In this document: positions 47,513 to 64,000 of the stretch, piece after piece
Layout of the letters: every line of letters begins with the position of its first letter
Position numbering within the stretch: the first letter of the stretch is position 1
NCBI GenBank assembly: GCA_043731355.1
Contig: JAYTJE010000028.1
Span: forward strand, 13,261 to 77,260
Source: Nitrospirota bacterium
GTDB lineage: Bacteria > Nitrospirota > UBA9217
Direction: 5' to 3'
DNA length: 64,000 bases
Position numbers and translations under genes: made by a program
The notes under the pieces: generated by a model
Database searches by the model: none
Told to the model about the DNA's origin: nothing
The model's input: the letters and a program-made list of their open reading frames with translations, nothing else

Positions 47513-50251
47513 ATGAATAGGAAATTATACCTGATGGGCGCGGTTATTCTGGCAACACTGCTGCTTCTGTTGCCTGGCGCCGGCTATGCGGCCCCTTCGC
47601 TGATCGGCGCTGTTACGGATGCCGTGGATAGACCTGCCTCTGTTGCTCTGGACTCGCAAGGAAATATCTATGTCTCCGAGACGGCAAACGACCTGCTGAA
47701 GGTATACAGCCGAAAAGGCAAGCTGCTGAAACAGCTAAGTATTCAACGCCCGCTTGGTGTGGCGGTTGATGCCTCGGGTTCTCTCTATGTAGGTTCCGGA
47801 GGGAGGCGCGCTGTAGATGTGTACGCTCCCGATTATACCTATGTCCGCAGTCTTGGCGCAGGGAAGGGTGAAGTCTCCCGGCCGGGATCAATAGCAGTGG
47901 ATGGGGCTGGAAGGGTGTATGTGCTTGACGCTGCGACGAGTATGGTCCGCGTGTATGATGCTTCAACCGCGCTGATGCTCTTCGCGTTCGGCGGCAGCGG
48001 CGCCACAGACGGTCTTTTCAACAGACCGATGGCGCTCGCCGTAAGCGACACTCTTGGCGAGATATATGTTGCCGAGCTCCGGAAGACGGTAATCTCCAGC
48101 GGCGCTACCATAGATGGGGCAAAAATTCAGGTGTTCGACAAAGCGGGCGCCTTTAAGAGGTCGTTCGGTGACTATGGCCTCGAAGCGGGGAAAATCGGCA
48201 AACCGGTCGGTATGGCTTTAGACGGCTCCGGTAATATTTTTATCCTTGATCTCATTCAGGGCGCTGCGCTTTCTTTTGATGCAACGGCGGGGACCTTCAA
48301 CAATACCGCGCTGTATAAGACGGTAAGCTCGATGCCTCTCGGAATCGCGATTGGTAAAAACAAGATCGCTTATGTATCGCAGGCAAACGCCCGGATCATA
48401 GATATCTATGGACTTGACGGCTACACGACCATGGATGAGACGCCAACTGCCCTGACCTTCGAAAGTAAACAGCTGAGCGCAAACGCTCAGGCGCAAACTG
48501 TTACGATCACTAACGCTGGAAATGGTTCTTTAGGATGGACAGCAGCGGCTGATAGTGACTGGATAACCCTGGGTGCAATGAGCGGGATCGCGGGTCCGAG
48601 CAGTTCAAGCAGCCTTGTTGTTGGTACGAACAATGCGAACCTGAAAGCGGGCACGTATCAGGGTGTGGTAACGGTAACTGCTGATTTCGGCCAAATAGAT
48701 AAGATTCCCGTAACCCTTACGGTGACTCCCGCGGCGACGATTGGCTTCAGCAATGGATCGATTGCTGTTGTAGCCAAAACTGGCAAAACGCCGGCTGCGC
48801 AGCCGATAACGATCAATGTGCAGAATGCCGCCTCGCTTCCCTGGACGGCTTCTTCTGATGCTTCCTGGCTTGGCCTTTCCACGGCCAGCGGCACCGCGAC
48901 CACGGTATCGGCCCTCTTTATTAATATGACGAATATCGCGCCCGGAACGTATACCGGGCATATCACGCTTTCTGCGCCGGGCGCAATCGGAAACGGGGGC
49001 AAGCTGACCGTCAGTCTCACGGTGACGCAGGGTACCAGGATCAGCGTGACCTCGAATATCCCGGATGCCCGGTTTACGGTTGCTGGTGCTACCACCTCCT
49101 ATACGGGTTCCGGCACGACATGGAGCGTCGAGGGGGCCCCTCTGGGTGATTACACCATTACCTTTGATGCGGTAAACGGATATCGCAGACCTCTTTCTCA
49201 GACGATAAGCCTGAACGATGCGGAGGTTACCGCCACGGGAAACTATCGTTCTTTGGCTGATATCGCTGACCGCACGAATATCATTGCAGGCAGGGAAGAT
49301 CATGAGAATAACAGCTCGAAAATAAAAATTTACAAGAACGACGGGACCCCGGTTGCCGCTCAGGTGTCTTTTGGCGCGGATGGCAAATCCGGCGCGCTCG
49401 CGGCGTCGGCGGATGTTGATGGAGACGGCACGGCGGAGCTTATCGTGGTAAGCCGCGTTGGCGCGAACAAACCCTCCGTTGTGCGGGTGCTTAAATCCGA
49501 TGGGACCATGCTGGCTGAGTTTGCGCCCTATGCGATGCCCGGCGGTATTAACGTGGCAGCGGGCGATCTGAACGGCGATGGCAGAGCGGAGCTTGTGGTC
49601 GCCCCCGCGGGGAACGAGAGAAGCGCCCCGGTCAAAGTATATGCCTACCAGGCGGATGCAAAAGCACTGGTGGCGACAGGAATTGAACTTACCACGTTTG
49701 GATACGATCAGGCCGTTGTAGTCGCTGTTGCGGATACGACGGGCAATGCGGCGCCGAAGCTTATTGCCGCGTCGCAGCAGGTTATGAGCGTCTGGACGAT
49801 TGATTCAACAAAGGGCGCGGGAAACTGGACAGCCTCGCTGCTGAACGACTTCAAGTTCATTGCCAGGGGAGAGGCTTCACTCTCGGCCGGAGATGTTGAC
49901 GGCGACGGCACGGATGAAATCATTGTCGGTGAAGGCCCGGGCGTCGTCAAAGCCTCCTCGTATAATTCCGCATCAAGAGTTATGCTATTTAAAACCGACG
50001 GTACTTCGGTCGGTGGGTTTGCCCCCTTCGCAAACTTTCCTTACGGCGTGAGCGTGGCGGCGGCCGATCTGACCGGCGACGGCATTGCTGAAGTGGTTGT
50101 CGGGTCCGGCGAGGCTCAACGCTCGTCAAAAAACAATAAAACGTCAAAAGTCAGCATCTTTAACGCGGCGGGAAAACTGTTGAAAACCATAACGCCCTAC
50201 GCAAATTCGCACAGCGGTGTTAATGTCACGGTTGGAGAGATGGGATTATGA
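47513..50251 (+). CDS. Large secreted NHL-repeat / beta-propeller protein with C-terminal FG-GAP-like repeats
   Basis: Signal peptide; N-terminal NHL units (YVSE/YVGS/YVLD/YVAE); central Ig-like segment; C-terminal repeated D.DGDG..E..V motifs (VDGDGTAELIVV, LNGDGRAELVVA, VDGDGTDEIIVG, LTGDGIAEVVVG). GGAGGTG RBS. Confidence 0.75.
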   Translation: MNRKLYLMGAVILATLLLLLPGAGYAAPSLIGAVTDAVDRPASVALDSQGNIYVSETANDLLKVYSRKGKLLKQLSIQRPLGVAVDASGSLYVGSGGRRAVDVYAPDYTYVRSLGAGKGEVSRPGSIAVDGAGRVYVLDAATSMVRVYDASTALMLFAFGGSGATDGLFNRPMALAVSDTLGEIYVAELRKTVISSGATIDGAKIQVFDKAGAFKRSFGDYGLEAGKIGKPVGMALDGSGNIFILDLIQGAALSFDATAGTFNNTALYKTVSSMPLGIAIGKNKIAYVSQANARIIDIYGLDGYTTMDETPTALTFESKQLSANAQAQTVTITNAGNGSLGWTAAADSDWITLGAMSGIAGPSSSSSLVVGTNNANLKAGTYQGVVTVTADFGQIDKIPVTLTVTPAATIGFSNGSIAVVAKTGKTPAAQPITINVQNAASLPWTASSDASWLGLSTASGTATTVSALFINMTNIAPGTYTGHITLSAPGAIGNGGKLTVSLTVTQGTRISVTSNIPDARFTVAGATTSYTGSGTTWSVEGAPLGDYTITFDAVNGYRRPLSQTISLNDAEVTATGNYRSLADIADRTNIIAGREDHENNSSKIKIYKNDGTPVAAQVSFGADGKSGALAASADVDGDGTAELIVVSRVGANKPSVVRVLKSDGTMLAEFAPYAMPGGINVAAGDLNGDGRAELVVAPAGNERSAPVKVYAYQADAKALVATGIELTTFGYDQAVVVAVADTTGNAAPKLIAASQQVMSVWTIDSTKGAGNWTASLLNDFKFIARGEASLSAGDVDGDGTDEIIVGEGPGVVKASSYNSASRVMLFKTDGTSVGGFAPFANFPYGVSVAAADLTGDGIAEVVVGSGEAQRSSKNNKTSKVSIFNAAGKLLKTITPYANSHSGVNVTVGEMGL

Positions 50252-50280
50252 TGCGCATAATGCACGAAGGAGCGGCGACT

Positions 50281-52494
50281 ATGAAGAAATCGAATTACAT
50301 ACTGATTTCACTCTTACTACTCATTGGCATATTCTGTGCCGCGAGCGTGTCTTATGCGCTTGATGCGCCGCATACTCCTGTCGGCGTCGCCGGTTACGAC
50401 GTCAACTGTGCCTATTGTCACTACCCATTGACTGCCGCCACTCCAGCGTGGGCCACGGCTGCTCCTCCCGCGGGGAGCACTAAGCTGAACCAGCTTTGTC
50501 TGACTTGTCATAATCCCAGTAATGGCATACCGGTCGCGAAGTTTGCGGATGTACAAACCCATTCCAGCTACGTGACCAATCCCACGGATACTTTACGCAT
50601 CGGCGTCTATCTCATGGAATGCCGCACCTGTCACAACCCGCACCTTCAGAATCAGATGAGGGCGCTTCCCGCGGACGGCAATTTGGATTTCGGCACGACG
50701 ACTAATGTAACCGCTACCTTGCTGTCAGACAGCACCAAGAGCTGGGGTGTTGACCAGTTTAAGGATGCTTTGCTGATACCGAATACCGCTTACATCGCGT
50801 ATACATACCGGATTCTCAGCAATACCAAGGACACCCTGACCATTCTTGGCGCGATGAAAACCATGTCACCCTATACCGGCGTGGGCAAGCCCTATCGTAT
50901 CAAATACGGCAAGTTGATCAAGACGTCAATTCCAACTCCGAACAGCGGCGCAAAGCCCGTCACCTTCCTGACCAATTCCGGAGGTTTGACTTCTTTCGCA
51001 TCAACCACCGCCACGGTCAAAGGTGTTTGTCAGGTCTGCCATACCAAGACCAAATATTTCCTTGGCAGCGGAGCCGTGCTCGACGGCGGCCATCCAGCGA
51101 CCTATGACGCGAACTGCACCGTTTTCTGCCATCAGCACAAATATGGATTCAAGGCGGGCTGCAACGGTTGTCACGGTCAGAGCGGCGCGACCGGGGCCCC
51201 GCTTATCGGCACGGACCTTGTCAGCCCCGCGACCGGTCATACTGTCGGCGCGCATCAGAAGCATGCTGTAACGCTTACCATCGGCTGCGATGTGTGCCAT
51301 AGCGGAAACGGCATGCCGACTACGGATAATATAATAACGGTAGCCTTTAGCGGCATAGGTACCGGTGGGGCCTATCAAGGCAAAACATTGTCTGTTCCCT
51401 ATGTTTACAGCGCGGGTGTCCCGACCGGCGCAACCGAGAGCTGCTCCACCGTATATTGTCACAGCTCGGGCCAGAGTGCTGACGGCGCATCGGCAACTCC
51501 TGTCTATACAACACCGGACTGGGAAGCCCCGGCCAGCGGCGCTTGCGGCACCTGCCATGCGACAACGGCGCCGGATATTTCAACAGGCAGTCATACGACG
51601 CACCTGACGACCGATACCAACTGCGGTAACTGCCATACCGGCGCAAGCGCATCAGCATATGTTTCCGCGAGTCATGTTAACAAGTCCATCGACGTAGCGA
51701 ACGCTTATACAGCGGGTGGCGCTCCCGGCAATGGATACGGCACCTGCTCGACAGCTTCCTGCCATGCCAACGTATATGCCGTAGGCACGTCGCCGACCCC
51801 GACCTGGGGCACGACTGGCAACGGCTGCTCGGCCTGCCATACTGCTCCGAATACGATTGCGGCAAGCGGACCGCCGACCGGGAGTCACTCGAAACACTAC
51901 ACTAATAATAATGTGTCCGTGGTGTGTACGGCTTGCCACAACGCAGGCACAACGATGTCAACGAAGCCGACCACGAGTCATACCGATGGTGATATTGACA
52001 TCGTCAACGTCGGATATCCCGCTAACAAAACAAAAGGCAGCGCCTTCTCCACGTGTGCCACTGCTTGTCACGGAGCTACCACCCGAACGTGGGGGCAGAC
52101 ATCAACCGGATGCAACTACTGCCATCCGTACACGGCAAATGACTGGGCGACCAGCAATCCGACCGGTACGGCGCTCGCGGTGGAAGGGTTCGGCGCGCAT
52201 GCCAAACACATCGCCCATCTGGTGTCGCTTGGGGGCGTCCTCACTCCCGCGACAGACTCATTCGGCAGCGGTGCCTCATGGACCAACGTATGCGGCGTAT
52301 GTCACAACGGGGCCTCGCACACGCTGGATGGAACCGTTGGAAGCAGGCAGATATCGGTCCAAGCAGGCTACCAGTTCGGAGCGAGCGCTCCGCTGTACAC
52401 CGGAATTATCGGCAACAGTTCAAGCGTCAACCCGAAGAGCTGCTCGAACGTAAGCTGTCATTTCCAGACCACGCCGGTTTGGTCGACCTACTAA
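50281..52494 (+). CDS. Multihaem c-type cytochrome (~17 haem motifs) with signal anchor
   Basis: 12 CXXCH plus 5 atypical motifs (CTVFCH, CSTVYCH, CSTASCH, CATACH, CSNVSCH) in Geobacter-type paired CX4CH...CXXCH arrangement; AAGGAG RBS; overlaps the upstream gene. Confidence 0.85.
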   Translation: MKKSNYILISLLLLIGIFCAASVSYALDAPHTPVGVAGYDVNCAYCHYPLTAATPAWATAAPPAGSTKLNQLCLTCHNPSNGIPVAKFADVQTHSSYVTNPTDTLRIGVYLMECRTCHNPHLQNQMRALPADGNLDFGTTTNVTATLLSDSTKSWGVDQFKDALLIPNTAYIAYTYRILSNTKDTLTILGAMKTMSPYTGVGKPYRIKYGKLIKTSIPTPNSGAKPVTFLTNSGGLTSFASTTATVKGVCQVCHTKTKYFLGSGAVLDGGHPATYDANCTVFCHQHKYGFKAGCNGCHGQSGATGAPLIGTDLVSPATGHTVGAHQKHAVTLTIGCDVCHSGNGMPTTDNIITVAFSGIGTGGAYQGKTLSVPYVYSAGVPTGATESCSTVYCHSSGQSADGASATPVYTTPDWEAPASGACGTCHATTAPDISTGSHTTHLTTDTNCGNCHTGASASAYVSASHVNKSIDVANAYTAGGAPGNGYGTCSTASCHANVYAVGTSPTPTWGTTGNGCSACHTAPNTIAASGPPTGSHSKHYTNNNVSVVCTACHNAGTTMSTKPTTSHTDGDIDIVNVGYPANKTKGSAFSTCATACHGATTRTWGQTSTGCNYCHPYTANDWATSNPTGTALAVEGFGAHAKHIAHLVSLGGVLTPATDSFGSGASWTNVCGVCHNGASHTLDGTVGSRQISVQAGYQFGASAPLYTGIIGNSSSVNPKSCSNVSCHFQTTPVWSTY

Positions 52495-52505
52495 GGAGGA
52501 TGACA

Positions 52506-55500
52506 ATGACCAGGCTTGGTGATATAATGGCGAAGATTAAAAATTCAAATGGTGAGGTCAGTATGACAATTAAAACGATGAAGACTCCAAAATCCTCTGG
52601 ATGGCTGGCAAAGGTCAGTCGGGTACTGATCTTCACCATGGTGAGTGTTCTCTCATATCAGGTCTACTATGCTTATGCATCCATAGGCAGCGGGCAGATG
52701 GTTTATAACAACAACACAACTACCCCGCAGGCGAGAACTTATACTGTTTCATCAAATACATTTGCAGCAGGTATTGCAACTGCAGCCGGGGGAACGCCCT
52801 CATGGATTAAGGTTGTTGCAGGAACAGTAAGGTACGAATCTGTTGTTGCTTATGTTGACACTGGAAACACCCTTCGAATCCTCTACTGGAACGGCTCAGC
52901 ATGGTCAGCTGCTGCGCCCCATAACTGGACCGCGGCGCTTGGGGCCTCAGGCGCAAGCGGAAGGGGATTTGATATTGCTGTGGAGAAGCTCTCAGGTGAT
53001 ATCATTGTCGCATACACAACAAATGCTGCCGGCACGGAGATAAACTCCTACCGCTGGGATGGCAGCACATGGACAGGCCCAACAGCGTATGATTCTGCCA
53101 GACTTACCGGAACTGTCCGCTTCATCAAGATGGAATCAAAACCTAACTCAGATGATATCGGCCTCATAATGGCTGATACAAACAATGACCTGAGCGCAGC
53201 GATCTGGACCGGAACAACAAATACATTCGGCAATCCTCCTTCTGCTGCCTTAAGCACTTCAGCGTCATTTATCGTTGCCGGTGCAGTTGACGCAGAAAGT
53301 TTCGATCTTGCGTATGAGAGTCAGACCGGAGATCTTCTGGTCGTTTGGGCCAATGATGCTATTGCTACCGGAGTATATTACAATACATTTTCTGGCGGTG
53401 CATGGGGAACAACAGCACAGAATACCAATATTACGGAGGCGATCGAGCATCTTGACTGTGCAGCTGATCCATTGACCAATAATATCCTCTGTGCTTTTGT
53501 TGGAACGGCAACACAGGATATGCGGGTTGGCGTATGGTCCGGTACAGCATGGCAGGGAACTACCACAGACGTGGATACTACAGCAGCGCCCGGAACATTT
53601 GTTGCCGGCAGAAGATACCTTGCAACAGGATGGTTGAATGCCGGCTCCGCGAAACAGGGCATAGTCGTATATAACGACAATAATGCAAATGCAATAAACT
53701 GGGTTACAGTTGCTGCAGATGGCACCTTTGCCGTGCAGACGGATAACACAGCGGCAACACCGATGCCTGTAGGCGGAGTTGCATACCATGACATAATCAT
53801 GGATCCATATAACCCTGACATATTGCTCTATATATTTCAGGATACGACCAACTTTGATATCTTTGCAAAGAGACTTATAATGGATTCTGCCGGTGCATTT
53901 ACATGGAGTGACGCCAACGCAGGCGTTGTAATTGACGCTGCTCCTACTACTGCAGCAAGCGAGGCATTTCATTTTGCCTATGACCTGTATTTGCTCGCAA
54001 TAGACAACGGCACAAACCCGTCAGACCTCTCCGTAGGGGAGAGCTCGACAGATAACGCATTGGACAGTTTTACCATGCAGATGAAGTCAGGGAGCGGCAC
54101 TGTAACAAGCCTGGTGGTGACCGGCAGTACGAATTTTACATCTACGAACATCCCGACTAACGGCGTGAAGGTATGGCGCGACCTCGGAACACTCGGGGTC
54201 TATGACCCTGGAGTTGATGTTCAGATATCGTCAGCTTCCACTGCGATCGCGAGCAACGCAACAACGGTCACCATAAGCAGTGAGGCTGTTACGACAACAC
54301 TTCAGAACTATCTTGTTACCGTAGACATTACAGCCGCACCAACATATGGTCAGACGTTTACCGGAACTGTCACGACCGCAACGGCAAGCGGCATCCCCGT
54401 GTACAACGACACGTCTTCAGCGACCCTGACTGTAACTGAAAGGAACCTGACCGTCAGCAACGGCACAAACCCGGTCAATAAGAACGCTCAGCCAAGCTCG
54501 GTCAACAATGCGCTGGACGGTTTCAGCATGGTTATGCCGCTGGTGACAGGCCCAACAACCACAGTGACGAGCCTGACTGTTACAGGCAGCGCCAACTTTA
54601 CATCTACGAACATCCCGACCAACGGTGTGAAGGTATGGCGTGACACCGGAACAACTGTTGGCTGGTGGGATGCTGGCGATGTGCTGGTATCGAGCGCATC
54701 CACTGCGATCGCGAGCAACGCAACAACGGTCACCATAAACAGTGAGGCGGTCACAACAACTGCCCAGAACTATCTTGTGACAGTTGACATCACTGCCGGT
54801 GCAACTCTTGCTCAGACTTTCACAGGCACAGTGACTGCGGCAGCGGGAACCGGCCTCGGCACGCCGGTCTACGCGGATTCATCGTCAGCGACCCTGACGG
54901 TCAACAAACTGCTTTCGGCAAATGCTTCCTGCGGAAGCTGCCACGCCTATCCGCCCTATGACGGAACAACGCGGGATGGTGTGAGCGGCGCGTTCGTGGG
55001 CGATCATCAGAAGCATAACGTCGTGTGCTTGACCTGCCATGTGGCGCCTGCCACCGAGACGAGCGCAGACTTTAAACATCGCGACGGGAACATCACCATG
55101 CAGGCGGCCATTAAGGGCGGCTCGTACAGCAAAGCGAGCCCTTTTGCCCAAGTGAATAATCCGGTGACCGGCACGTGCTCGAATATATCCTGCCATGGCG
55201 GCAATAATCCAACACCCCAGTGGGGCGTCGGAACGGCAACCTGTATCAGCTGCCATAGCGGAATAGTTACCGCGGCGAACGCGTCAATTGCTTCCGGCGG
55301 CACGGTGACGCAGCGCGACGCGGTGAAGAATGAATTTGGTTTGGCGTGGGGGCATAAGAATTTAAATCGTTTAGCGGTTACCGATGCTGACTGCATTGTC
55401 TGTCACCTGGAAGGCAATTGGACGACGCAAAAAACATCAGCCGTGCATGCCGACGGATATATAAACTTGCGTGCCCCGGATGGAGCCGGTGAAGTAGCTA

Positions 55501-56480
55501 TTACGGATATGAGCGCGGCGACATATAGCTTCGTACAATTTTCAACTACCTATGCCGCCGGTTCAAGAACTCAGACCGGCAACACATCAAACAATGTAGA
55601 CAATGTCCTGACTCAGAAGTTCTGTCTCGCCTGCCATGACAGCAACGGGGCTACCAATACGACGGCGCGCTCTAACAATGGGGGCACAGGCACCGCGACA
55701 ATGCCTTTCGGCGGTGTGGCGTTAGGGCTTACTTACACCGCGGTCAATGACGCAATCGGCACTCAAGGTTTAATCGACGTTAAGTCTCAGGTTGCAACAT
55801 CGAATTCATCGTTCCACCCGGTTGTGGGACCGCTGAACAGGGATTTCCCGGCACAGTCAATGCTGAATGTGCCCTACAATAATAACGGCTCGAGACCTGG
55901 GACGTCGGGAACGAAAACATTCAGCGTAGTTTTGAACTGCTTTGACTGTCATAATCAGCCTTCCGGCAGCGAACTTACTAAAAGAACCGTCATATCGCAC
56001 GGCTCTACAGCCCCGAACCACTTACGCGGCAATATATATAGTTCAACTACTCCGATCTGTACCGTATGCCATTCGGCCACGTACGCAACCGGCACCAGCT
56101 CGCATCCGGCAGGATCGGCTTGGGGTGTTGCGACCTCTCGCGACCATTCGTCATACTTTCCCTTGTGCAATAACTGCCATTTGAGCACAACCTCAACGAC
56201 GGCGCCGACCCGACCGATCCCGGCGCAGGACATACACGGGTTTAACAGGCTGTCAAACGCTGGCAGCACGGATTTACTCTGGCCGGTCGGCGCCACTGAA
56301 TCCTGGAGGCCTTATGGGTTCTTGAGGAATACCGTGCAGTACACCAGTACCGTAGCCGGGCCGAGGCCGTACAGAGGCACGGAGGCCGCGCTTACGACGG
56401 GTACTTCCAACTGCGGTAATGATGCGGTATCTTGCGACGCCACCCTCATGACCGATTACGCGCCTGGCGGCTCGTATTAA
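52506..56480 (+). CDS. Mega-cytochrome (1324 aa): N-terminal TM anchor, beta-propeller-like W-G-x-x-W repeats, two tandem ~120-aa T/S-rich repeats, C-terminal ~9-haem domain
   Basis: AAGGAGG RBS 6 nt before ATG 52506; eight CXXCH plus CSNISCH in the last 450 aa; the ~120-aa unit TVTSLVVTGS.NFTSTNIPTNGVKVWRD...TLTV occurs twice. Confidence 0.8.
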   Translation: MTRLGDIMAKIKNSNGEVSMTIKTMKTPKSSGWLAKVSRVLIFTMVSVLSYQVYYAYASIGSGQMVYNNNTTTPQARTYTVSSNTFAAGIATAAGGTPSWIKVVAGTVRYESVVAYVDTGNTLRILYWNGSAWSAAAPHNWTAALGASGASGRGFDIAVEKLSGDIIVAYTTNAAGTEINSYRWDGSTWTGPTAYDSARLTGTVRFIKMESKPNSDDIGLIMADTNNDLSAAIWTGTTNTFGNPPSAALSTSASFIVAGAVDAESFDLAYESQTGDLLVVWANDAIATGVYYNTFSGGAWGTTAQNTNITEAIEHLDCAADPLTNNILCAFVGTATQDMRVGVWSGTAWQGTTTDVDTTAAPGTFVAGRRYLATGWLNAGSAKQGIVVYNDNNANAINWVTVAADGTFAVQTDNTAATPMPVGGVAYHDIIMDPYNPDILLYIFQDTTNFDIFAKRLIMDSAGAFTWSDANAGVVIDAAPTTAASEAFHFAYDLYLLAIDNGTNPSDLSVGESSTDNALDSFTMQMKSGSGTVTSLVVTGSTNFTSTNIPTNGVKVWRDLGTLGVYDPGVDVQISSASTAIASNATTVTISSEAVTTTLQNYLVTVDITAAPTYGQTFTGTVTTATASGIPVYNDTSSATLTVTERNLTVSNGTNPVNKNAQPSSVNNALDGFSMVMPLVTGPTTTVTSLTVTGSANFTSTNIPTNGVKVWRDTGTTVGWWDAGDVLVSSASTAIASNATTVTINSEAVTTTAQNYLVTVDITAGATLAQTFTGTVTAAAGTGLGTPVYADSSSATLTVNKLLSANASCGSCHAYPPYDGTTRDGVSGAFVGDHQKHNVVCLTCHVAPATETSADFKHRDGNITMQAAIKGGSYSKASPFAQVNNPVTGTCSNISCHGGNNPTPQWGVGTATCISCHSGIVTAANASIASGGTVTQRDAVKNEFGLAWGHKNLNRLAVTDADCIVCHLEGNWTTQKTSAVHADGYINLRAPDGAGEVAITDMSAATYSFVQFSTTYAAGSRTQTGNTSNNVDNVLTQKFCLACHDSNGATNTTARSNNGGTGTATMPFGGVALGLTYTAVNDAIGTQGLIDVKSQVATSNSSFHPVVGPLNRDFPAQSMLNVPYNNNGSRPGTSGTKTFSVVLNCFDCHNQPSGSELTKRTVISHGSTAPNHLRGNIYSSTTPICTVCHSATYATGTSSHPAGSAWGVATSRDHSSYFPLCNNCHLSTTSTTAPTRPIPAQDIHGFNRLSNAGSTDLLWPVGATESWRPYGFLRNTVQYTSTVAGPRPYRGTEAALTTGTSNCGNDAVSCDATLMTDYAPGGSY

Positions 56481-56561: not shown

Positions 56562-58034
56562 ATGAGCATGAAAAGATTTTCTACCGTATTCGTTCTGGCA
56601 ATCCTCTGTCTTATGCCCCTTGTATTTTCCGCGGGGTGCAAAAAGAAGCAGGTAAAGACCCCGGCGATGCCCGCAGCCCCCGCCAGGCACGAGGTTGTAG
56701 CGAAGACAACGCTTCTGGCAACGATCCCGGAACTGGATAAACCAATCCAGTCAGAGGGGTTGCCGCCTCGTCACGCCGGCATCCCCTCCGGTTCGGGAGG
56801 CCCGCCGCCCGGCCATGCCAATATCCCTTCAGGACAAAGCCCTGAGCTCCTGGTTTATTTCAGTAAACTGGGTGGGGGAGCGGCCTATATTTCGGAAAGG
56901 GCCGGCAAAAAGCATGTGGTGTACAACGGCAAACCGGGCAAACCGTACGATGAGATCGACACTCTTACCGTGCTCTTAAGTGAGGACGGTCGGCGAATCG
57001 CCTATGGCGCCAGGACCGGGGCCAAGTGGATGATGGTGATAGACGGCGCGGAAGAAGGTCCGTACGACAGTGTTGGGTCCGCGGCCTTCAGCCCCGACGG
57101 CTTGCATGTCGCCTACCAGGCGCGGCAGGGCGGCAAATGGCACGTTGTATCCGGCACCAAGATGAGTGCGGGATGCGATACGTATCAGAATCAACCGATG
57201 TTCAGCGGCGATTCGACAAGAATATACACGATAGAAAAGACAAAAGTTGAAGGCATGCAGCGGCTGATTGTCAGCGACCTTGCATTCGAGAAGCAGCGTG
57301 TCAAGGTGCTGCGCGGGAAGTATTTATTTACGAACGAAAACAAAACCCGGATAGGCGCGATCGAGGAGGTCAATGGCAGGGAGCGGGTGATCGAATTGGA
57401 TTTCAACACGCTTGACGTCGTCAAACAGGGTGACTTCTATGATTCCATCAGATTTCCCACATTCGGGCCTGACGGCGTTACGGTTTCGTATGCCGCGGCG
57501 CAGCGCCAAAGACCCGGCGTTGTTTTTCGTTTTCTTATATTGGGCGACAGAAAGGAACGTCTTCCGGATGACGCTCCGATGGCGCTTCCCGTGGTCCGCC
57601 CGGACAAGAAAGGCGTCGGCATGATTATGTCGACTAAGACCAGTTACTACCTGCACCAGGCCTTTTATAACGACGGCACGAAGAAGCGGTATTATGATGA
57701 GGCCGGTGACCTGGCCTATAACAAGGACGGAAGTCTTCATGCGTTCGCGGCAAGAAAAGGCAATAAAGTCTTTATCGCGGTGAACGAAAAGGCCGGGCCC
57801 GCATTCGATCATGTGACTATGCCGGTATTCAGTCCCGACGGCAGGAAGGTCGTCTACCGGGCGAGAGAGAAAGAAAAACGGTTCCTTGTTGTTGCCGACG
57901 CCAACGGCAGGGTTTTGCGCAAGCATCCGGCCTATGAGAGGATTTTTGATCCCGTGTTTACCCCTGACGGGAAGTCGGTTGCCTATGGGGTCAAGGACGG
58001 GGACAAGCTTGTCTGGAAGGTGGAGAAGCTGTAG
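56562..58034 (+). CDS. Lipoprotein with PD40/TolB-like beta-propeller repeats
   Basis: Lipobox FSAGC; repeated FSPDG..VAY / SEDGRRIAY units. Confidence 0.6.
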   Translation: MSMKRFSTVFVLAILCLMPLVFSAGCKKKQVKTPAMPAAPARHEVVAKTTLLATIPELDKPIQSEGLPPRHAGIPSGSGGPPPGHANIPSGQSPELLVYFSKLGGGAAYISERAGKKHVVYNGKPGKPYDEIDTLTVLLSEDGRRIAYGARTGAKWMMVIDGAEEGPYDSVGSAAFSPDGLHVAYQARQGGKWHVVSGTKMSAGCDTYQNQPMFSGDSTRIYTIEKTKVEGMQRLIVSDLAFEKQRVKVLRGKYLFTNENKTRIGAIEEVNGRERVIELDFNTLDVVKQGDFYDSIRFPTFGPDGVTVSYAAAQRQRPGVVFRFLILGDRKERLPDDAPMALPVVRPDKKGVGMIMSTKTSYYLHQAFYNDGTKKRYYDEAGDLAYNKDGSLHAFAARKGNKVFIAVNEKAGPAFDHVTMPVFSPDGRKVVYRAREKEKRFLVVADANGRVLRKHPAYERIFDPVFTPDGKSVAYGVKDGDKLVWKVEKL

Positions 58035-58058: not shown

Positions 58059-58775
58059 ATGATCAGCGCCGTTATCCCCGCCTATAACGAGGAGGACACA
58101 CTGGAAGCCGCCGCGCGCGCGCTCGCCGGGGTCCTGTCGCGGCTTTCCCCGCTTGAGTGGGAAATCATTATCGTAAACGATGGAAGCCTGGACCGCTCCG
58201 CCGAGATAGCCGACAGGCTGGCAGATGATGCTCACATTCGCATCGTCCGGCACGAGCGAAACCGGGGCAAGGGCGCGGCCGTGCGGACCGGGGTGCTTCT
58301 TACCCGAGGGGATGTGGTGCTGATTTGCGACGCGGACATGTCCACCCCTCCGGACACGCTGGGGCCGTTTCTCGCGGAACTTTCCCGCGGGGCCGATCTC
58401 GTGACAGGCGACCGCAGGAGCCGTCATTCCCGCATCGAGCGTCCACAATCACTCCTTCGGCGGTTTATGGGCGGCGTATACGCGGCCCTTGCCCGATGGA
58501 TTACCGGAATATCCCTGCGTGATTTCAACTGCGGATTCAAGCTGATCCGAGGTGACGCGGCCCGCTCTCTGCTGCAAAGATGCCGGTCCGACGGATGGAC
58601 CTGGGATGTGGAAGTCATCGCCCTGGCCGCGCGCTCCGGGTTGACCGTACGAGCTCTTCCGGTAACGTGGCGACAGGGGGACCGCACGTCGGTCCGCCCC
58701 TTTTGCGGCGCGGTAAAAAGCCTTGTTGATTTAACAGCTCTCTGGTTTCGTCTGCGCGGGGCAAAAAACCTTTAA
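58059..58775 (+). CDS. GT2 glycosyltransferase, Dpm1-like polyprenyl-phosphate sugar synthase
   Basis: VIPAYNEEDTL...IIIVNDGSLD..., RNRGKGAAVRTG, CDADMS (DxD). Confidence 0.75.
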   Translation: MISAVIPAYNEEDTLEAAARALAGVLSRLSPLEWEIIIVNDGSLDRSAEIADRLADDAHIRIVRHERNRGKGAAVRTGVLLTRGDVVLICDADMSTPPDTLGPFLAELSRGADLVTGDRRSRHSRIERPQSLLRRFMGGVYAALARWITGISLRDFNCGFKLIRGDAARSLLQRCRSDGWTWDVEVIALAARSGLTVRALPVTWRQGDRTSVRPFCGAVKSLVDLTALWFRLRGAKNL

Positions 58776-60844
58776 TTGCCCCTCGGAATAAGCTCCCTGG
58801 CTATTTCGCTCTCCCTTGCCGCCTCGCTCAACCGGTTCTGCTTCAAATAAACATCGCTCAGCTGTTTATGGGCATCCGGCTCATCAGGACGCAGTGCTAT
58901 TGACGCACGGTATTCAACAATTGCCTGGTCCATAGAACCCAGGGAAGCATACGCATTGCCAAGGTTGTAATGGGCATCGGGTTCATCGGAATCCAGCGCA
59001 ATTACCGCGCGGTATTCGGCAATCGCCTGGTTCAATAAACCGATGGCGGCATACACATTCCCGAGATTGAAATGCGCCTCAAGGAAATCCGCTCGAAATG
59101 CCAGTGCGGCTTTAAATTCATTAACCGCTTCGGGGTAACGCTGCCGGAGCATGTATGCGCTGCCAAGATCGTTGCGCGCGGCGGCATCGGCGCGTTCCAG
59201 CTGTGAAGCGGAGGTATATTCGCCTGTCGCAACTCCATTAAGATCCCGCTGAGCATGGGCCATCCTCAAGCCATTAAATATTTTACTATTATCCGGTTCG
59301 ATCGCCAGCGCGGTTTTAAATTCGGTAATCGCATCGTCGTAGCTCCCCTGTCTCATAAACTCAGCGCCGATATTATAATAGGCATCGGCATAGCCCGCAT
59401 CGATTTGCAGAGCAGCCTTAAATTCGTTTATTGCTTCGTCGTAACGATGCTGCTCCGCATACGCAACTCCAAGATTATTATGGGCCAGGGGAAGTCTGCC
59501 GGGAAACTCGTCAATAACATAGGTCCAGAAAGTGACACTGTCTTTCCATATGCCGATCTGGCGTATTGTGGCATAGGAGAGGAATGCGATAATGGTTACC
59601 GCAATGACATAGCTTGACAGCCGCACGGCCCCGCCCCATTGGTTTACCGACGAGATCTTTTCATGGACTTTTACCGCCGATAAACCCGCAATAAGAAAAA
59701 AACCAAGACCCGGCAAATAGGTATACCGGTCCGCCATCGCTGCGTCACCGACCTTGACAATACCCAGAACGGGCGCCAGTGTTATGACATAATACGCCCA
59801 CACTGCCATCCATAATTTTTGTCTTCGCATTGCGACTATGCACGCCGCCGTGATCAGGACGACAAGGAGAAGCGCTGAAAGGTACTGGAATGAAAAAATA
59901 GATACCTCCTGGGGAATAGGGTACAGCGGGACCAAGTGTGCGGGCGCCACTGTTTTTATCAGGTAAAATGCCAAAGCTCCGGCAGCCAGCGTAAATCTTG
60001 ATGCCAAGGGCACTTGCTCTAAAGAGCTGACGGTGTTAACGGACGCTTGGGCGAAGAGGGTCAGGAGCGCTACACTAAAACTCAGGATTATAAAAGGCAT
60101 TTTTTCAAGGAATACCGTCCGGAAGGTTTCGAGAGACCGTATTCTTTTATAAAGATACCAGTCCAGGATCAACAGAACCAAGGGAAGTGAAACCGCCATT
60201 GGCTTGCTCATTAACGCAAGTATAAATAGAGCTATTGTCAGGAAATACTTCCGGGAAAATATGCGTGCTGATACGCGCGTGGAAGTATTTGCGCTCATGT
60301 CGCCCACATACCGCGTATATGCCGCGATCGTGAGCAGGTAAAAGAATGAACAAAGAAGGTCCTTTCTTTCAGAAACCCAGGCGACCGATTCGACACGGAG
60401 AGGGTGAATGCCGAACAACAATCCCGCGGTTACGCCGGCTAGTATCACGGCAGTATCATTCAATACCGGCTGCGACCCCGCGTTGTTTTTCCCGGTCTGC
60501 CGGTAAACCTCCAGGAGCCTCATGATAAGCAATGCGAGGATGAACGTGTTGAGCGCATGGATAAGGTTATTTGTGAGATGAGGCCCCAGGGGATTCAGAC
60601 CCCACAGGGCATAGTCGAAGGCATGCGAGAGCCAGGTGACGGGATGCCAATTACCCAGATGAAACTCCATAAAAGCCGATTTCAACAACCGCATATCGAA
60701 AGAACGGATAAAGGAATTATCGTAAAAATAACCACCGTCATCCCATAAGATAAAATCGTTTTGCAGCGTTGGCAAGAAAACGATAAAGGTTATAACCGCG
60801 CATGCAATTGCAAGGCTGATTTTTGTTTTTGAAGTAGTATTCAT
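58772..60844 (-). CDS. TMTC/DUF1736-like GT-C membrane protein with extended C-terminal TPR array, paralog 2
   Basis: NDFILWDDGGYFYDN...NWHPVTWLSHAFDYALWGLNPLGPHLTNNLIHA motif block; ~11 TM helices; >8 TPRs. Confidence 0.7.
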   Translation of the reverse strand: MNTTSKTKISLAIACAVITFIVFLPTLQNDFILWDDGGYFYDNSFIRSFDMRLLKSAFMEFHLGNWHPVTWLSHAFDYALWGLNPLGPHLTNNLIHALNTFILALLIMRLLEVYRQTGKNNAGSQPVLNDTAVILAGVTAGLLFGIHPLRVESVAWVSERKDLLCSFFYLLTIAAYTRYVGDMSANTSTRVSARIFSRKYFLTIALFILALMSKPMAVSLPLVLLILDWYLYKRIRSLETFRTVFLEKMPFIILSFSVALLTLFAQASVNTVSSLEQVPLASRFTLAAGALAFYLIKTVAPAHLVPLYPIPQEVSIFSFQYLSALLLVVLITAACIVAMRRQKLWMAVWAYYVITLAPVLGIVKVGDAAMADRYTYLPGLGFFLIAGLSAVKVHEKISSVNQWGGAVRLSSYVIAVTIIAFLSYATIRQIGIWKDSVTFWTYVIDEFPGRLPLAHNNLGVAYAEQHRYDEAINEFKAALQIDAGYADAYYNIGAEFMRQGSYDDAITEFKTALAIEPDNSKIFNGLRMAHAQRDLNGVATGEYTSASQLERADAAARNDLGSAYMLRQRYPEAVNEFKAALAFRADFLEAHFNLGNVYAAIGLLNQAIAEYRAVIALDSDEPDAHYNLGNAYASLGSMDQAIVEYRASIALRPDEPDAHKQLSDVYLKQNRLSEAARESEIARELIPRGN

Positions 60845-62544
60845 TGTTTGGTCAAATTATTTCGATCAATGCTTGCAGCCGATCGAAAGTCATCATTCGC
60901 GCGAGACAGCATCCCTTGCTCCTTATACAACTGACCTCTTTCCCGATAATACACCGAACGCTTCGGAGAGGAATCAGACTGCAGGGCTTTGGTATAGTCA
61001 GCTATTGCGCTGTTATACTTCCCCAAGCGCGCAAGAAGGCGCGCCCGTTCTGAATACAGATCGTCCATCGGGAAACGCTTTTTCCGTTCGGCAATAGCGA
61101 TCGCTTCATCCATGTCGGCCAACGCCTTTTCATATTCCCCCTTCAGCACATAGCTTGTCGCGCGCATAAAGTAGGTCCTGCCTGAGAAGTGGGGGTTGAC
61201 GTCGATCGCTCTGCTCCAGAGCGCCACATCATTTTTCCAAAAAGACAGTTGTCGTACCGTAAGGTAAGCGCTTGCAAGCAACAGGAACGCAGTCCCTGAA
61301 AGGATGGCGGCAACTTTCACGCGTGAACCGGACGGTCCCGCGGCGAGGCGGGTTATGGAAAGCGCGGCCAGTATCGATATCGGCAGACTCGGGATATAGG
61401 TGAAGCGGTCCGACATAATGGTGTTGGAAACCTGAGCAAATCCGAGAAGAGGCATGAGGGTAATCAGATAAATCAACCATACGGTTAGAAGAACGGGTTT
61501 GCGTTTAACGAGCAGCGCCGAATAAAGCGTCACAATCAGGGAAAAAAGGACCGGAACCGTATATTCGAGGCTGAAGAAATTGATGCTCCCCGGATGCAGA
61601 TAGAACGGGCTGAGATGGAACGGCCAGATCATGAACCAAAGATAATGCATTACGGATTTGAATGCAATGAGCAGACGGGACAGGATATCCGATTCGGCAA
61701 GCGGCATGGAGACTGATTGGTGGGTGGAAAGAATGATCGCCGCTACCGCACCCGCAACAAGCAGGAATACGGTCTTTTCAAGAAGAAGGACTATCAGGGA
61801 GGTCCTCCGCACTCTGCCGAGCGGAAACCAGTCAAGGACCAGCAGCACCAGCGGCAAGGTAACCAGAGTAGATTTGCTGAGCAGAGAAAAGCAAAACAGA
61901 GCGGCCGCGAACCAATAATGCCGGGAGAATGCAAAAGACAGCGCGCCTGGATGTTTTTCATCGGATTCGGTATATTGGAGATAGGCCATAACAGCAGGGA
62001 TGCCGAAAAACAGGCTGAGCACATCTTTTCGCTCGGTCGCCCAGGCAACGGATTCCACTCTGAGGGGGTGAATGGCAAAAAAAAGCGCCGCCAGCAAGGA
62101 ACAATAGAACGCCTGATTGAATCCGTAGGGGAAGGTCCTCTTGTCTTCAGTTGTGGTAACGGCCGCATATCGCTGAAGCAATTGCAGTACAAGAAGAAAG
62201 AACAGCCCCGCATTGAGCGCATGAAAAATGTTGTTGGTGAGATGATAGCCCAGAGGATTCAGGCCCCAAAAAGCATGGTCCAGCGCCAGTGAAAGCCATG
62301 TCAGCGGGGCCCAGTAATTGGCATACACCCCGAAAAATGCCCAGGAGAGCGTCTCAAGGGAGAGCCTTTTAATGTGGTCGTTATCTACAATATATCCGGC
62401 GTCATCCCAGGTATAAACGAAGTCATTGCGGAGATCCGGGGCAAAACATGCAAAGACAACAAGGACAATAAGAATAAAGGCAGCGAGCTTTACGGTCCTT
62501 ATAGTGCCGTCGTTTTCAGTTTTACCGCGCGTCGAGTTCGACAT
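60841..62544 (-). CDS. TMTC/DUF1736-like GT-C membrane protein with C-terminal TPRs, paralog 3
   Basis: NDFVYTWDDAGYIVDN...YWAPLTWLSLALDHAFWGLNPLGYHLTNNIFHA; 4-nt overlap with the downstream paralog. Confidence 0.7.
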   Translation of the reverse strand: MSNSTRGKTENDGTIRTVKLAAFILIVLVVFACFAPDLRNDFVYTWDDAGYIVDNDHIKRLSLETLSWAFFGVYANYWAPLTWLSLALDHAFWGLNPLGYHLTNNIFHALNAGLFFLLVLQLLQRYAAVTTTEDKRTFPYGFNQAFYCSLLAALFFAIHPLRVESVAWATERKDVLSLFFGIPAVMAYLQYTESDEKHPGALSFAFSRHYWFAAALFCFSLLSKSTLVTLPLVLLVLDWFPLGRVRRTSLIVLLLEKTVFLLVAGAVAAIILSTHQSVSMPLAESDILSRLLIAFKSVMHYLWFMIWPFHLSPFYLHPGSINFFSLEYTVPVLFSLIVTLYSALLVKRKPVLLTVWLIYLITLMPLLGFAQVSNTIMSDRFTYIPSLPISILAALSITRLAAGPSGSRVKVAAILSGTAFLLLASAYLTVRQLSFWKNDVALWSRAIDVNPHFSGRTYFMRATSYVLKGEYEKALADMDEAIAIAERKKRFPMDDLYSERARLLARLGKYNSAIADYTKALQSDSSPKRSVYYRERGQLYKEQGMLSRANDDFRSAASIDRNNLTKQ

Positions 62545-62546
62545 TT

Positions 62547-63275
62547 TTACCTTCGCAAAAGATTATAAAAAATGATGCAGCGGATGGCGGAAAGGCCGTC
62601 CCTCCAGGTGATCTTCTTGCCTTCGGCATAGGTCCTGCCGGTATAAGAAATACCGACCTCGAATATACGGGCCCGCATCCGCGCCACCCGTGCGGTAAAT
62701 TCGGGCTCGAACCCGAAGCGATTTTCTCTGAGCACCAGCCGCGTTGCAATGTCTTTGGTAAAGGCCTTGAGCCCGGACTCCATATCGGTAAGAGTGAGGT
62801 TCGTCAATAGGTTCGAAAGCAGCGTCAGGAATTTGTTTCCCAGCAGGTGCCAGAAGAAAAGGACCCGGTGAGCGCCCTCTCCGCCGAAGCGGGCGCCGTA
62901 GACAACGTCCGCCTTCCCTTCAGCGATCGGAGCGAGCAGCTTCGGATAATCACGAGGGTCATATTCAAGGTCCGCGTCCTGAATAATAATAACGTCCCCG
63001 GACACGTGAGCAAGCGCCGTGCGTACGGCGGCGCCTTTGCCCCTGTTCCGCTCGTGTTCGATAAGCTTTATGCCCTCGATCCCGCGCAGTATCACCCGTG
63101 TATCATCAGTGGACCCGTCATCCACCACAACGAGCTCACAGGGCAGCCCGGTCTGTTTTATGCGCTTCAGCGTCGCGGCAATAAAACTCTGTTCGTTGTA
63201 AACCGGCACGATTACCGACAAAGTTTTCCCGGACAAGAGCGGCAAGACTTCGTTGAGAGCAATATCGGTGCGCAT
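62547..63275 (-). CDS. GT2 glycosyltransferase, Dpm1-like polyprenyl-phosphate sugar synthase
   Basis: VIVPVYNEQSFI...LVVVDDGSTDDT, RNRGKGAAVRTA, QDADLE (DxD). Confidence 0.75.
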   Translation of the reverse strand: MRTDIALNEVLPLLSGKTLSVIVPVYNEQSFIAATLKRIKQTGLPCELVVVDDGSTDDTRVILRGIEGIKLIEHERNRGKGAAVRTALAHVSGDVIIIQDADLEYDPRDYPKLLAPIAEGKADVVYGARFGGEGAHRVLFFWHLLGNKFLTLLSNLLTNLTLTDMESGLKAFTKDIATRLVLRENRFGFEPEFTARVARMRARIFEVGISYTGRTYAEGKKITWRDGLSAIRCIIFYNLLRR

Positions 63276-63276
63276 A

Positions 63277-64000
63277 TCAGTAAGAGTGTAAAGACCTATT
63301 CAAATTTTGATAAAAGCCTCCGATGAAGGCCCCGTCGGGAGCCGTAATTTCAATAAGCGGCATAAATTGCCCCAGAGCCCCGCGATCATCCCGTGATAAA
63401 AACCGGTTGTAAACCAATATATACTTATAATCCTCATTGGCCTCCACACTATGCAGCTTTGTCGGTGAGAGTCCGTACGCCTGATTGGTTTCGAACGAGT
63501 ATTTAAACGGATACGAATAAACAGCAGCCTCTTCATTCCCGACGAGCTCGGCAACACGACGGAAAAAGTCCTTATTGAACGCGTCATACCAGTAGGAAAC
63601 GGTAAAACCTTTGTCTTGAGCGCCCCTGGCGCCTCCGATAAATTGATTGTAATAACTTAATTCATAGGGATGATTTGCGTACAGTTGAAAGACGGTCAGC
63701 GCCAGGCTGAGAATGCCTATGGTCATCCCGATCCTGTATTTCCGCAGTACTAATTCCTGGAGCCAGTAGCATCCTGAAATGCTCAGCAGGACGATGAATG
63801 GCCAGGCGCTGCTGAACAGCCTGATGCCGTCGTGCTTCGGCGTTGACGGCAGCATATATACAGCCATGCATACAAGAAATGGCGCCAGAGCTACATACGA
63901 GAATTTGTCCCTGTTCCTTATGAACCGGACGATTCCGCCGACAATCCCCACGATCGCGGTGACGACCATGATCGGGGGAAGGGTAATCCCCAGCATGACC
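63277..64000 (-). CDS. Polytopic membrane protein, probable GT-C glycosyltransferase (C-terminal part only; N-terminus beyond the window)
   Basis: Several TM helices followed by a soluble C-terminal domain; translationally coupled to the GT2 gene at 62547. Confidence 0.4.
   Translation of the reverse strand, partial: VMLGITLPPIMVVTAIVGIVGGIVRFIRNRDKFSYVALAPFLVCMAVYMLPSTPKHDGIRLFSSAWPFIVLLSISGCYWLQELVLRKYRIGMTIGILSLALTVFQLYANHPYELSYYNQFIGGARGAQDKGFTVSYWYDAFNKDFFRRVAELVGNEEAAVYSYPFKYSFETNQAYGLSPTKLHSVEANEDYKYILVYNRFLSRDDRGALGQFMPLIEITAPDGAFIGGFYQNLNRSLHSY

Follow-up and report, generated by a model that had tools for sequence, protein, structure and literature searches.

A predicted glycosylation module with TMTC-like enzymes next to an OmcE-type cytochrome cluster in a Nitrospirota bacterium

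The stretch of DNA analysed here, 64,000 nt of a Nitrospirota bacterium (contig JAYTJE010000028.1, positions 13,261 to 77,260) and as a whole called the window, ends in a group of glycosyltransferase (GT) genes that lies beside a cytochrome operon. It is highly probable that this group, which consists of family 2 glycosyltransferases (GT2) and multi-pass GT-C proteins, is a polyprenyl-phosphate-sugar plus GT-C glycosylation module, and its two proteins with tetratricopeptide repeats (TPR) appear from their sequences and predicted fold to be bacterial relatives of the eukaryotic TMTC enzymes. The reading favoured for the whole, with modest confidence, is that of a module that would use lipid-linked monosaccharides in the periplasm and whose most likely clients would be the products of the neighbouring cluster of OmcE-type cytochromes. 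The open reading frames (ORFs) and coordinates given in a first-pass annotation made from the letters alone were borne out by the ORF map, including a TMTC-like paralog at 16161 and a GT2 gene at 35445. Since the ORFs are long and their family matches strong, chance is not an issue for this gene set. The genes are listed below by position and strand; loci and contigs that were retrieved for comparison carry L-numbers (L001, L051, L082 and so on).

63277..64000, minus strand: GT-C cut by the window end, the last 240 codons of a 529-aa GT39/PMT_2-like protein; first gene of the operon
62547..63275, minus strand: GT2b, 242 aa, soluble, DPM1/ArnC-like, PF00535 E=1e-35, DAD motif; a predicted polyprenyl-phosphate-sugar synthase
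60841..62544, minus strand: TMTC-like A, 567 aa, a GT-C membrane domain of ~450 aa and a short C-terminal TPR domain
58772..60844, minus strand: TMTC-like B, 690 aa, a GT-C membrane domain (1 to ~448) and a TPR domain of ~7 repeats
58059..58775, plus strand: GT2a, 238 aa, soluble, ArnC/GtrB/PgfS-like, PF00535 E=7.5e-32, DAD motif; convergent with the operon
35445..36203, plus strand: GT2c, 252 aa, DPM1/AglJ-like, PF00535 E=5.8e-24, HPD replacing DXD; last gene of the first of two OmcE-led runs
16161..17732, plus strand: third TMTC-like paralog, in an ORF open from 16050, translation probably starting with M38 at 16161

TMTC-like GT-C proteins with TPR domains

The first-pass annotation had described the TPR proteins as TMTC/DUF1736-like and had proposed hidden Markov models of DUF1736 and PMT_2 for their confirmation. 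This confirmation fails: the membrane domains (~450 residues) of the three window paralogs have no Pfam match even at E<=10 and likewise none in NCBIfam, the Pfam TPR matches lie only C-terminal to residue ~440 (residues 440-565 in TMTC-like A), and PDB sequence searches with a single membrane domain and with the family profile gave no match. The relationship to TMTC that had been proposed was instead established by profile-profile comparison and by the predicted fold. A profile of eleven N-terminal domains of animal TMTC1-4, rebuilt from an alignment in the supplement to Eisenhaber et al. 2021 (PMC7801869), matched the three window paralogs with E=2.9e-19, 2.5e-18 (TMTC-like A, residues 18-431) and 1.2e-24 (the 16161 paralog), and the reverse hmmsearch with a bacterial profile found the animal TMTCs at 1e-13 to 7e-28. 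In hhalign, the bacterial family and the eleven animal TMTCs aligned at 99.7% (E=2.5e-26) over 382 columns, which is nearly the whole domain. At the level of sequence these alignments are decisive, and they show the TPR proteins of the window to be genuine homologs of TMTC1-4 across the full GT-C domain.

TMTC-like B was modelled with AlphaFold at full length (pLDDT 82.8, pTM 0.81). Foldseek with this model returned TPR proteins only, and for this reason the membrane domain was modelled separately (pLDDT 79.9, pTM 0.86). The PDB matches of the membrane-domain model at ranks 1-17 were all STT3, PglB, AglB or ArnT (probability 0.96-1.0, TM-score 0.34-0.49), after which the probability was <0.3.

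The conservation of motifs was followed in 46 full-length sequences (32-84% identity) and 23 sequences of the transmembrane (TM) part only. The first-pass annotation had considered that relatives might lack the acidic catalytic loop of GT-C enzymes; in fact, a pair of aspartates (DD; D35, D36) in the first extracytoplasmic loop was invariant in all of these sequences, the three window paralogs included. Besides DD, ~40 other positions are invariant, among them K214 and R373, the equivalents of phosphate-binding Lys/Arg residues; HP..VE.VAW (HPxxxE), (E)RKD, R283 and Y376 (DRxxY) also belong to the invariants of the 46 sequences. Of the seven TMTC motifs described by Eisenhaber et al., M1 (DD), M3 (RxD), the Lys and Thr of M4 and M7 ((E/D)RxxY) are retained. 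In KE(T/Q)xxT (M4), the bacterial family conserves K and T/S and carries P, S or A in place of the Glu. This Glu and the D of DW (M5, in the DUF1736 loop), which are modelled metal ligands in the human TMTCs, are not conserved. This departure explains why a match to Pfam TMTC_DUF1736 is missing: PF08409, the model of this loop, has no match in the three window paralogs, and the region is unaligned in hhalign. The same model does score above its cut-off with another bacterial member, the neighbour of OmcE genes in L142 (28.8 bits, cut-off 27).

The lack of two metal-ligand positions and of the DUF1736 signature, together with a heavy expansion of paralogs in the family, would fit proteins that have merely retained the GT-C fold and act as non-catalytic membrane scaffolds or chaperones in secretion or in the assembly of nanowires or the envelope. 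Such a role is very improbable, given that DD and ~40 further positions with K214 and R373 stayed invariant over so wide a range of identity, and that the TMTC-like genes are coupled in genomes to GT2s resembling polyprenyl-phosphate-sugar synthases. Predicted fold, homology and catalytic motif mark the TMTC-like proteins as GT-C enzymes, which presumably are active. Their N-terminus is rich in K/R, their loop 1 is acidic, and their hydrophobic segments are odd in number; this suggests an N-in topology, which would place DD and the TPR domain in the periplasm.

The eukaryotic TMTC1-4 are protein O-mannosyltransferases of the endoplasmic reticulum that act on cadherins, and the family is GT105 of CAZy. 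Like the window proteins, they join a multi-pass GT-C domain at the N-terminus to TPRs at the C-terminus, which lie on the non-cytoplasmic side (as predicted for the window proteins), and they share with them DD in loop 1, (Y/W)xP, HPxHxE, RxD, the K and T of KExxT and (E/D)RxxY over ~380 homologous columns. In contrast to them, the window proteins are bacterial and predicted to be inner-membrane/periplasmic, they are without the Pfam DUF1736 match, DW and the Glu of KE(T/Q)xxT, their donor would be a bacterial polyprenyl-phosphate sugar, and their family is massively expanded, with tandem paralogs. The 16161 paralog, 38-40% identical to TMTC-like B, keeps DD and the other invariants.

More than 7,600 clusters at 90% identity belong to the family (among 8,000 candidates scored). 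Members are named 'TPR repeat protein' or, at JGI, 'protein O-mannosyl-transferase', and this large bacterial family is routinely annotated just as 'tetratricopeptide repeat protein'. As its catalytic domain is without models and the annotation is by TPR only, periplasmic protein glycosylation is probably under-annotated in Nitrospirota, Desulfobacterota and other phyla. Among 81 sources, 54 had a lone TMTC-like gene and 27 had two to nine copies in tandem. Nine in tandem occur in L006 and L020, both Nitrospirota metagenome-assembled genomes (MAGs), and the array of L006 has a GT2c ortholog within it.

Partner enzymes and recurrence of the module

The operon on the minus strand reads, from upstream to downstream, 529-aa GT-C, GT2b, TMTC-like A and TMTC-like B, and it is tightly packed. 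Overlaps of 2 to 4 nt had been claimed between its genes, of which one stands, an ATGA of 4 nt at the TMTC-like A/B junction (60841-60844); GT2b is separated from TMTC-like A by 2 nt (62545-62546) and from the 529-aa gene by 1 nt (63276). GT2a, which converges on the operon, shares 4 nt (TTAA, 58772-58775) with TMTC-like B at the 3' ends and starts 24 nt 3' of the gene for a PD40 lipoprotein. Away from this cluster, the third TMTC-like paralog has an MFS transporter gene on one side and bioA on the other (Pfam context). The window is chromosomal, with plsX, fabH, ruvAB, queH and bioA among its genes. The BioA protein shares 86% identity with its counterpart in Nitrospirae bacterium GWC2_56_14, and every named match of it is from Nitrospirota, in line with an uncultured member of this phylum as the host.

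The gene cut by the window end was completed from the Logan contig L001, which is 100% identical to window 54709-64000 (9,292 nt) and extends 1.3 kb beyond it (complete gene at L001:454-2043). The 529-aa protein scored 25.6 bits (E=1.7e-5) with Pfam PMT_2 and 20.0 bits (E=5e-4) with Pfam PMT, the cut-offs being 26.1 and 22.7, and carries an acidic 'LDEGFY' (Leu-Asp-Glu) motif after TM1. Many of its ~110 homologs have precomputed matches to PF13231 (PMT_2) or PF02366 (PMT); they are named GT39 family, in one case ArnT family (NCBI), and 'Ara4N transferase-like' (JGI; Ara4N, 4-amino-4-deoxyarabinose). Homologs with 52-53% identity, found in MAGs of Geobacteraceae and Desulfuromonadaceae, bear the NCBI name glycosyltransferase family 39 protein. 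By its sequence the protein is classed as a GT39/GT83-like GT-C, formally just below the Pfam threshold.

All three GT2s match PF00535 (E=6e-24 to 1e-35). The closest PDB relatives are ArnC (1.9e-19), GtrB (1e-17) and the dolichol-phosphate mannose synthase DPMS (1.8e-16) for GT2a, and ArnC (8e-17) and Pyrococcus DPMS (2.5e-16) for GT2b. The best NCBIfam matches of GT2b were AglJ, PpgS and a Dol-P-hexose transferase, all under their equivalog cut-offs, and those of GT2a were PgfS and ArnC; no match reached the equivalog level that would name sugar and lipid, with NCBIfam scores of 40-119 bits against curated cut-offs of 213-529 bits. The GT2s are shorter (238-252 aa) than ArnC and GtrB (~320-340 aa), whose C-terminal TM helices they lack. 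They are closest to polyprenyl-phosphate glycosyltransferases, which agrees with the Dpm1-type GT2s that had been proposed. The further claim of a mannosylation-type pathway found no support: nothing in the analysis points to which sugar is used, and mannose would be only a guess by analogy.

The DXD position is occupied by DAD in GT2a and GT2b and by HPD in GT2c. This HPDYQY sequence is conserved in GT2c and all twelve orthologs (L002, L006, L012, L015, L033, L038-L040, L044-L046, L078; HADYQY in L039), and GT2c-type enzymes are the GT2 subfamily that most often adjoins TMTC-like genes. An ORF after GT2c (36238..37101, plus strand) was rejected as probably spurious, being without a family match and facing a GAF-GGDEF diguanylate cyclase gene on the minus strand (36268..37392).

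The recurrence of these genes was followed in 79 GTDB loci seeded with a TMTC-like protein. A GT2c ortholog (370-423 bits) directly adjoins the TMTC-like gene in ~12 of them. Orthologs of the 529-aa protein (52-53%) have a GT2 gene and between one and five TMTC-like genes (330-360 bits) as neighbours in one Geobacteraceae and two Desulfuromonadaceae MAGs: in the former (L165/L166, GCA_032469775.1), GT2 and GT39-like ortholog stand beside five tandem TMTC-like genes and a carbamoyltransferase gene (L165), and in the latter (L167/L168) they stand beside B12-radical-SAM enzymes, a methyltransferase, GT9 and YfhO (L167). The triad of GT2, GT39-like and TMTC-like genes thus recurs across phyla with varying gene order, which is good evidence from genome comparison that the three act together, and in this sense the coherent pathway of GT2 synthases and GT-Cs that had been proposed is supported.

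In closer relatives, the order of genes around the locus is also kept. A GT2a ortholog (434 bits) is found at the same place in L082, PD40 orthologs lie beside TMTC-like genes in L082 and L084, and two multihaem cytochrome genes and PD40 are still convergent on the TMTC-like genes in relatives whose TMTC-like B has 84% or 63% identity. Homologs of the Asn-rich outer membrane protein (OMP), of the 748-aa cytochrome and of the PD40 protein were not found in unrelated TMTC loci. The loci with the 84% identical TMTC-like B (L081-L083) show further rearrangements: the TMTC-like pair is split by fragments of radical-SAM/SPASM genes, HicAB and AAA_14/DUF4143 are inserted after the GT39-like gene, and an island between PD40 and TMTC-like B holds a sulfotransferase, an APS kinase, the GT2a ortholog and two more PMT-like genes. 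The sulfotransferase and APS kinase give hints of sulfated glycans.

Similar pairs of enzymes are known from several systems. In the actinobacterial Ppm1/Pmt and the streptococcal PgfS/PgfM, the monosaccharide is first linked to a lipid by a GT2 and then passed by a PMT-like GT-C to extracytoplasmic regions rich in Ser/Thr; among the NCBIfam families, PgfS is the one closest to GT2a, with a score far under the equivalog cut-off. In contrast to the window, these are monoderm systems without TPR-bearing GT-Cs. ArnC/ArnT and GtrA/GtrB/GtrC likewise combine a GT2 polyprenyl-phosphate-sugar synthase with a periplasm-facing GT-C, whereas the window GT2s are without C-terminal TM helices, no flippase gene or Ara4N pathway was found among the window ORFs scanned, and two of the three GT-Cs of the locus carry TPRs.

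The likeness to these last systems raises the question of whether the GT-Cs decorate a lipid or glycan, i.e., lipid A, the core of lipopolysaccharide (LPS), O-antigen or exopolysaccharide, with the TPR domain docking the export machinery. It draws on ArnC, which among solved structures comes closest to GT2a and GT2b, on ArnT among the fold matches and in the names of the homologs of the 529-aa protein, on glycan-tailoring genes in related loci (GT9 heptosyltransferase, acyltransferase_3, GDSL, carbamoyltransferase, sulfotransferase), and on three-component glycan systems being common (PMC11127046). Yet arnA/B/D, arnE/F and gtrA were not found among the window ORFs scanned, ArnT and GtrC enzymes are without TPR domains, and the only characterised GT-C+TPR relatives all act on proteins. 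This alternative is considered quite improbable; its ArnT/lipid A version, which had been named in the first-pass annotation, stays in place only as a minority view, since Ara4N genes are not present.

Proposed pathway and protein acceptors

In the pathway that the homologies suggest, the soluble DPM1/ArnC/GtrB-type GT2s (GT2a, GT2b, GT2c) would move a sugar from a nucleotide sugar to polyprenyl phosphate on the cytoplasmic side of the inner membrane, and the lipid-linked sugar would then be flipped across the membrane. On the periplasmic side, the three GT-Cs (the 529-aa protein, TMTC-like A and TMTC-like B) may use it as the donor, while the TPR domains would pick the acceptor proteins, as has been proposed for TMTC1-4 and TfpW. 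The clients might be exported Ser/Thr-rich OmcE subunits, the large multihaem cytochromes, or both, and O-linked sugars would be added to them before or in the course of export; the indications for this last step are circumstantial.

That the acceptors are proteins is probable by analogy, since every characterised GT-C+TPR enzyme (TMTC1-4, TMEM260, TfpW) glycosylates proteins. TfpW of Pseudomonas aeruginosa, a GT-C of 11 TM segments with a periplasmic TPR domain, O-arabinofuranosylates a group IV pilin. Compared by description only, it likewise has a periplasmic loop with a DDx motif and, ahead of the TPR, a motif rich in Tyr and Pro, to which Y294-x6-P301-x4-P306 would correspond in the window. 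Its gene adjoins that of its filament-subunit client, a parallel to the adjacency of OmcE and TMTC-like genes in L051, L109, L117 and L142. It differs in its client, a type IV pilin, and in its sugar, a D-arabinofuranose from a dedicated pathway whose genes are not present here.

The OmcE-type cytochrome cluster and its link to the locus

The genes beside the locus form, as read from the genes alone, an OmcE-type nanowire cluster in two runs ~17 kb apart. The adjacency to a cytochrome operon that had been remarked upon is thereby strengthened, as the neighbours match both 7TFS, the OmcE filament of G. sulfurreducens, and 9YUQ, a second solved, filament-forming OmcE homolog. The features of the two runs, all on the plus strand apart from the hairpins, are as follows.

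29764..30420, plus strand: OmcE1, 218 aa; 9YUQ E=1.1e-32 over the full length, 7TFS E=1.6e-29
30447-30470: strong terminator-like hairpin directly 3' of OmcE1, 10-bp stem and T-run
30747..31829, plus strand: NHL beta-propeller lipoprotein (Pfam), lipobox LFGC
31826..32812, plus strand: SurA-like peptidyl-prolyl isomerase (Pfam)
33245..35185, plus strand: Asn-rich beta-barrel-like OMP, 646 aa, no Pfam match; poly-Asn tract NNNNVNNNNSNNNNNSYNYNNNNN, serine run, C-terminal Phe
46703..47470, plus strand: OmcE2, 255 aa, tetrahaem; 7TFS (phmmer) E=1.9e-28, 9YUQ E=2.6e-21; candidate nanowire subunit and candidate glycosylation client
47483..50251, plus strand: secreted NHL/BACON/FG-GAP beta-propeller protein, 922 aa (Pfam)
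50248..56480, plus strand: two large Ser/Thr-rich multihaem cytochromes, one of 748 aa with 12 CXXCH and one of up to 1400 aa with 8 CXXCH; Pfam Cytochrome_C7, GSu_C4xC__C2xCH, MtrC-like
56509-56532: strong terminator-like hairpin 3' of the 8-haem cytochrome gene and 5' of PD40-GT2a, 10-bp stem and T-run
56562..58034, plus strand: PD40/TolB-like beta-propeller lipoprotein, 490 aa (Pfam PD40), lipobox SAGC; two-gene unit with GT2a

The first run thus goes from OmcE1 through the hairpin, the NHL lipoprotein, the SurA-like isomerase and the OMP to GT2c, and the second from OmcE2 through the NHL/BACON/FG-GAP protein, the 12-haem and 8-haem cytochromes, the hairpin and the PD40 lipoprotein to GT2a, so that both have a GT2 as their last gene. 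OmcE1 and OmcE2 are 31% identical, with four CXXCH and four further His (eight haem-ligand His in total) invariant. In Desulfuromonadia, an omcE cluster joins OmcE to a pair of multihaem cytochromes, a pair of beta-propeller lipoproteins and a large beta-barrel, and OmcE homologs are known from five phyla including Nitrospirota (bioRxiv 10.1101/2025.10.22.684050). The 646-aa OMP is a candidate for this 'large beta-barrel'.

Glycosylation of such filaments has been described in Geobacter. 'Extensive glycosylations of OmcE' are stated in an eLife paper (PMC9473688), extra densities of G. sulfurreducens OmcE have been taken as glycosylation, and most omcE clusters of Geobacter and Geomonas are followed by 15-70 genes for GT2, GT4, GT39, TPR proteins and others (both bioRxiv 10.1101/2025.10.22.684050). 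All parts listed for these tracts, i.e., the cluster genes plus GT2, GT39 and TPR genes, are present in the window, which differs in its Nitrospirota host, in its two OmcE runs and in a minimal tract of 5-6 genes versus 15-70. In the same preprint, the TPR proteins were not recognised as GT-C/TMTC-type and no enzyme was assigned to OmcE glycosylation. The kinds of parts and the presence of glycosylation genes behind omcE clusters are thus already known. What is new here is the assignment, from sequence and models, of the 'TPR proteins' to TMTC-type GT-C enzymes, and the predicted three-enzyme module that is conserved across phyla and attached in a minimal version to an OmcE cluster in Nitrospirota.

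A direct link between the two sets of genes was seen in other genomes. In L051, a Xanthomonadales MAG, an OmcE homolog is immediately followed by a TMTC-like gene (product 45% identical to TMTC-like B), with PMT_2, DUF2142 and LPG_synthase_TM genes alongside. In a reciprocal search of 80 OmcE-seeded metagenome loci (L085-L164), TMTC-like genes of different subfamilies directly adjoin or are embedded among OmcE genes in L109, L117 and L142. These are four independent adjacencies in different phyla, and by a rough estimate three in 80 is above chance, the expectation being 0.2-0.8 for 5-20 family copies per genome. The search took a flank of 10 kb, which would miss the module even in this window, and it gives weak support at best. 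Within the 80 loci there were 123 OmcE matches, many loci having two or three tandem OmcE paralogs; an NHL beta-propeller homolog was found beside an OmcE homolog in 54, and homologs of the 646-aa OMP in only two.

A number of points weigh against OmcE-cluster products as the clients of the module and against the favoured reading as a whole. The remaining 77 of the 80 OmcE-seeded loci are without a TMTC-like gene, and a DPM1-like GT2 was within reach in none of the 80, many contigs being short. Most TMTC-like loci have no cytochrome gene nearby; a strong terminator-like hairpin stands between the cytochrome genes and PD40-GT2a, and GT2c lies 259 nt 3' of the OMP gene. The operon and the other window ORFs that were scanned (not every small one) yielded no flippase gene (GtrA, ArnE/F or similar). 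The glycosylation of Geobacter OmcE consists of densities in cryo-electron microscopy, as cited in secondary sources, and the literature on bacterial TMTC/DUF1736 yielded only the remark of Eisenhaber et al. 2021 that prokaryotic homologs exist. To these come the two metal-ligand positions of M4 and M5 described above. The cytochrome link is facultative and not a rule, and as the family is very large, multi-copy and mostly without a cytochrome neighbour, most of its paralogs must have other clients.

It follows from the same observations that the enzymology could be as proposed while the clients are other envelope proteins, such as pilins, lipoproteins, OMPs or S-layer-like proteins, or the substrates of a general periplasmic O-glycosylation, the proximity to OmcE being incidental or inherited. 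The lone TMTC-like genes in 54 of the 81 sources, most without a cytochrome nearby, the position of the third window paralog, the OmcE loci that lack a TMTC-like gene and the hairpin before PD40-GT2a all fit this explanation, as does the synteny of the two multihaem cytochromes with PD40, which is restricted to close relatives and could reflect shared ancestry. It is countered by the four independent OmcE/TMTC-like adjacencies and by the GT2 at the end of both OmcE runs, together with the matching Geobacter pattern, and is held to be unlikely. Returning to the OmcE-cluster products, that their cytochromes are among the acceptors agrees with the recent Geobacter observations and is a serious possibility, if a somewhat doubtful one. 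The S+T content of the large cytochromes (23%) and of OmcE2 (17%), compared with ~11% in cytoplasmic proteins, is compatible with glycosylation and not diagnostic of it. The Asn-rich OMP, which the first-pass annotation had brought in beside the cytochromes, gained no support as a target.

Cytochrome nanowires (OmcS, OmcE) are reportedly coated by glycans, which may insulate the wire or stop bundling and for which no enzyme has been assigned. A broader and more tentative proposal, which may well not hold in full, would be that bacterial TMTC-type GT-C+TPR proteins are the missing O-glycosyltransferases that coat OmcE nanowires and their partner cytochromes, fed by DPM1-like GT2s (the HPD variant included), and that they represent a very large family of periplasmic protein glycosyltransferases, with a catalytic domain without Pfam or NCBIfam model, that is ancestral to the eukaryotic TMTCs. 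The window would then contain a minimal, genetically tractable version of the nanowire glycosylation system. For Geobacter, the analysis narrows the candidates to a short list of genes, i.e., the TMTC-like and GT39-like ones and their DPM1-like partners.

Some details of the two runs may be added. A terminator hairpin is usual after highly expressed filament-subunit genes. The 1400-codon ORF of the 8-haem cytochrome (52278..56480) overlaps the preceding gene by 217 nt, and the start is probably after 52494, near 52560. All eight of its CXXCH lie within residues 885-1297, in the last third, which leaves a Ser/Thr-rich non-haem N-terminal region of ~800 residues. Upstream of OmcE2 by ~600 nt, a 120-aa ORF (45442..45804) is flanked by tandem arrays of heptanucleotides at 45336-45425, 45785-45933 and 45941-46110, with 11-21 copies of CAGTAGA/CAGTAGG and ~23 of the reverse complement TCTACTG/TCTCCTG.

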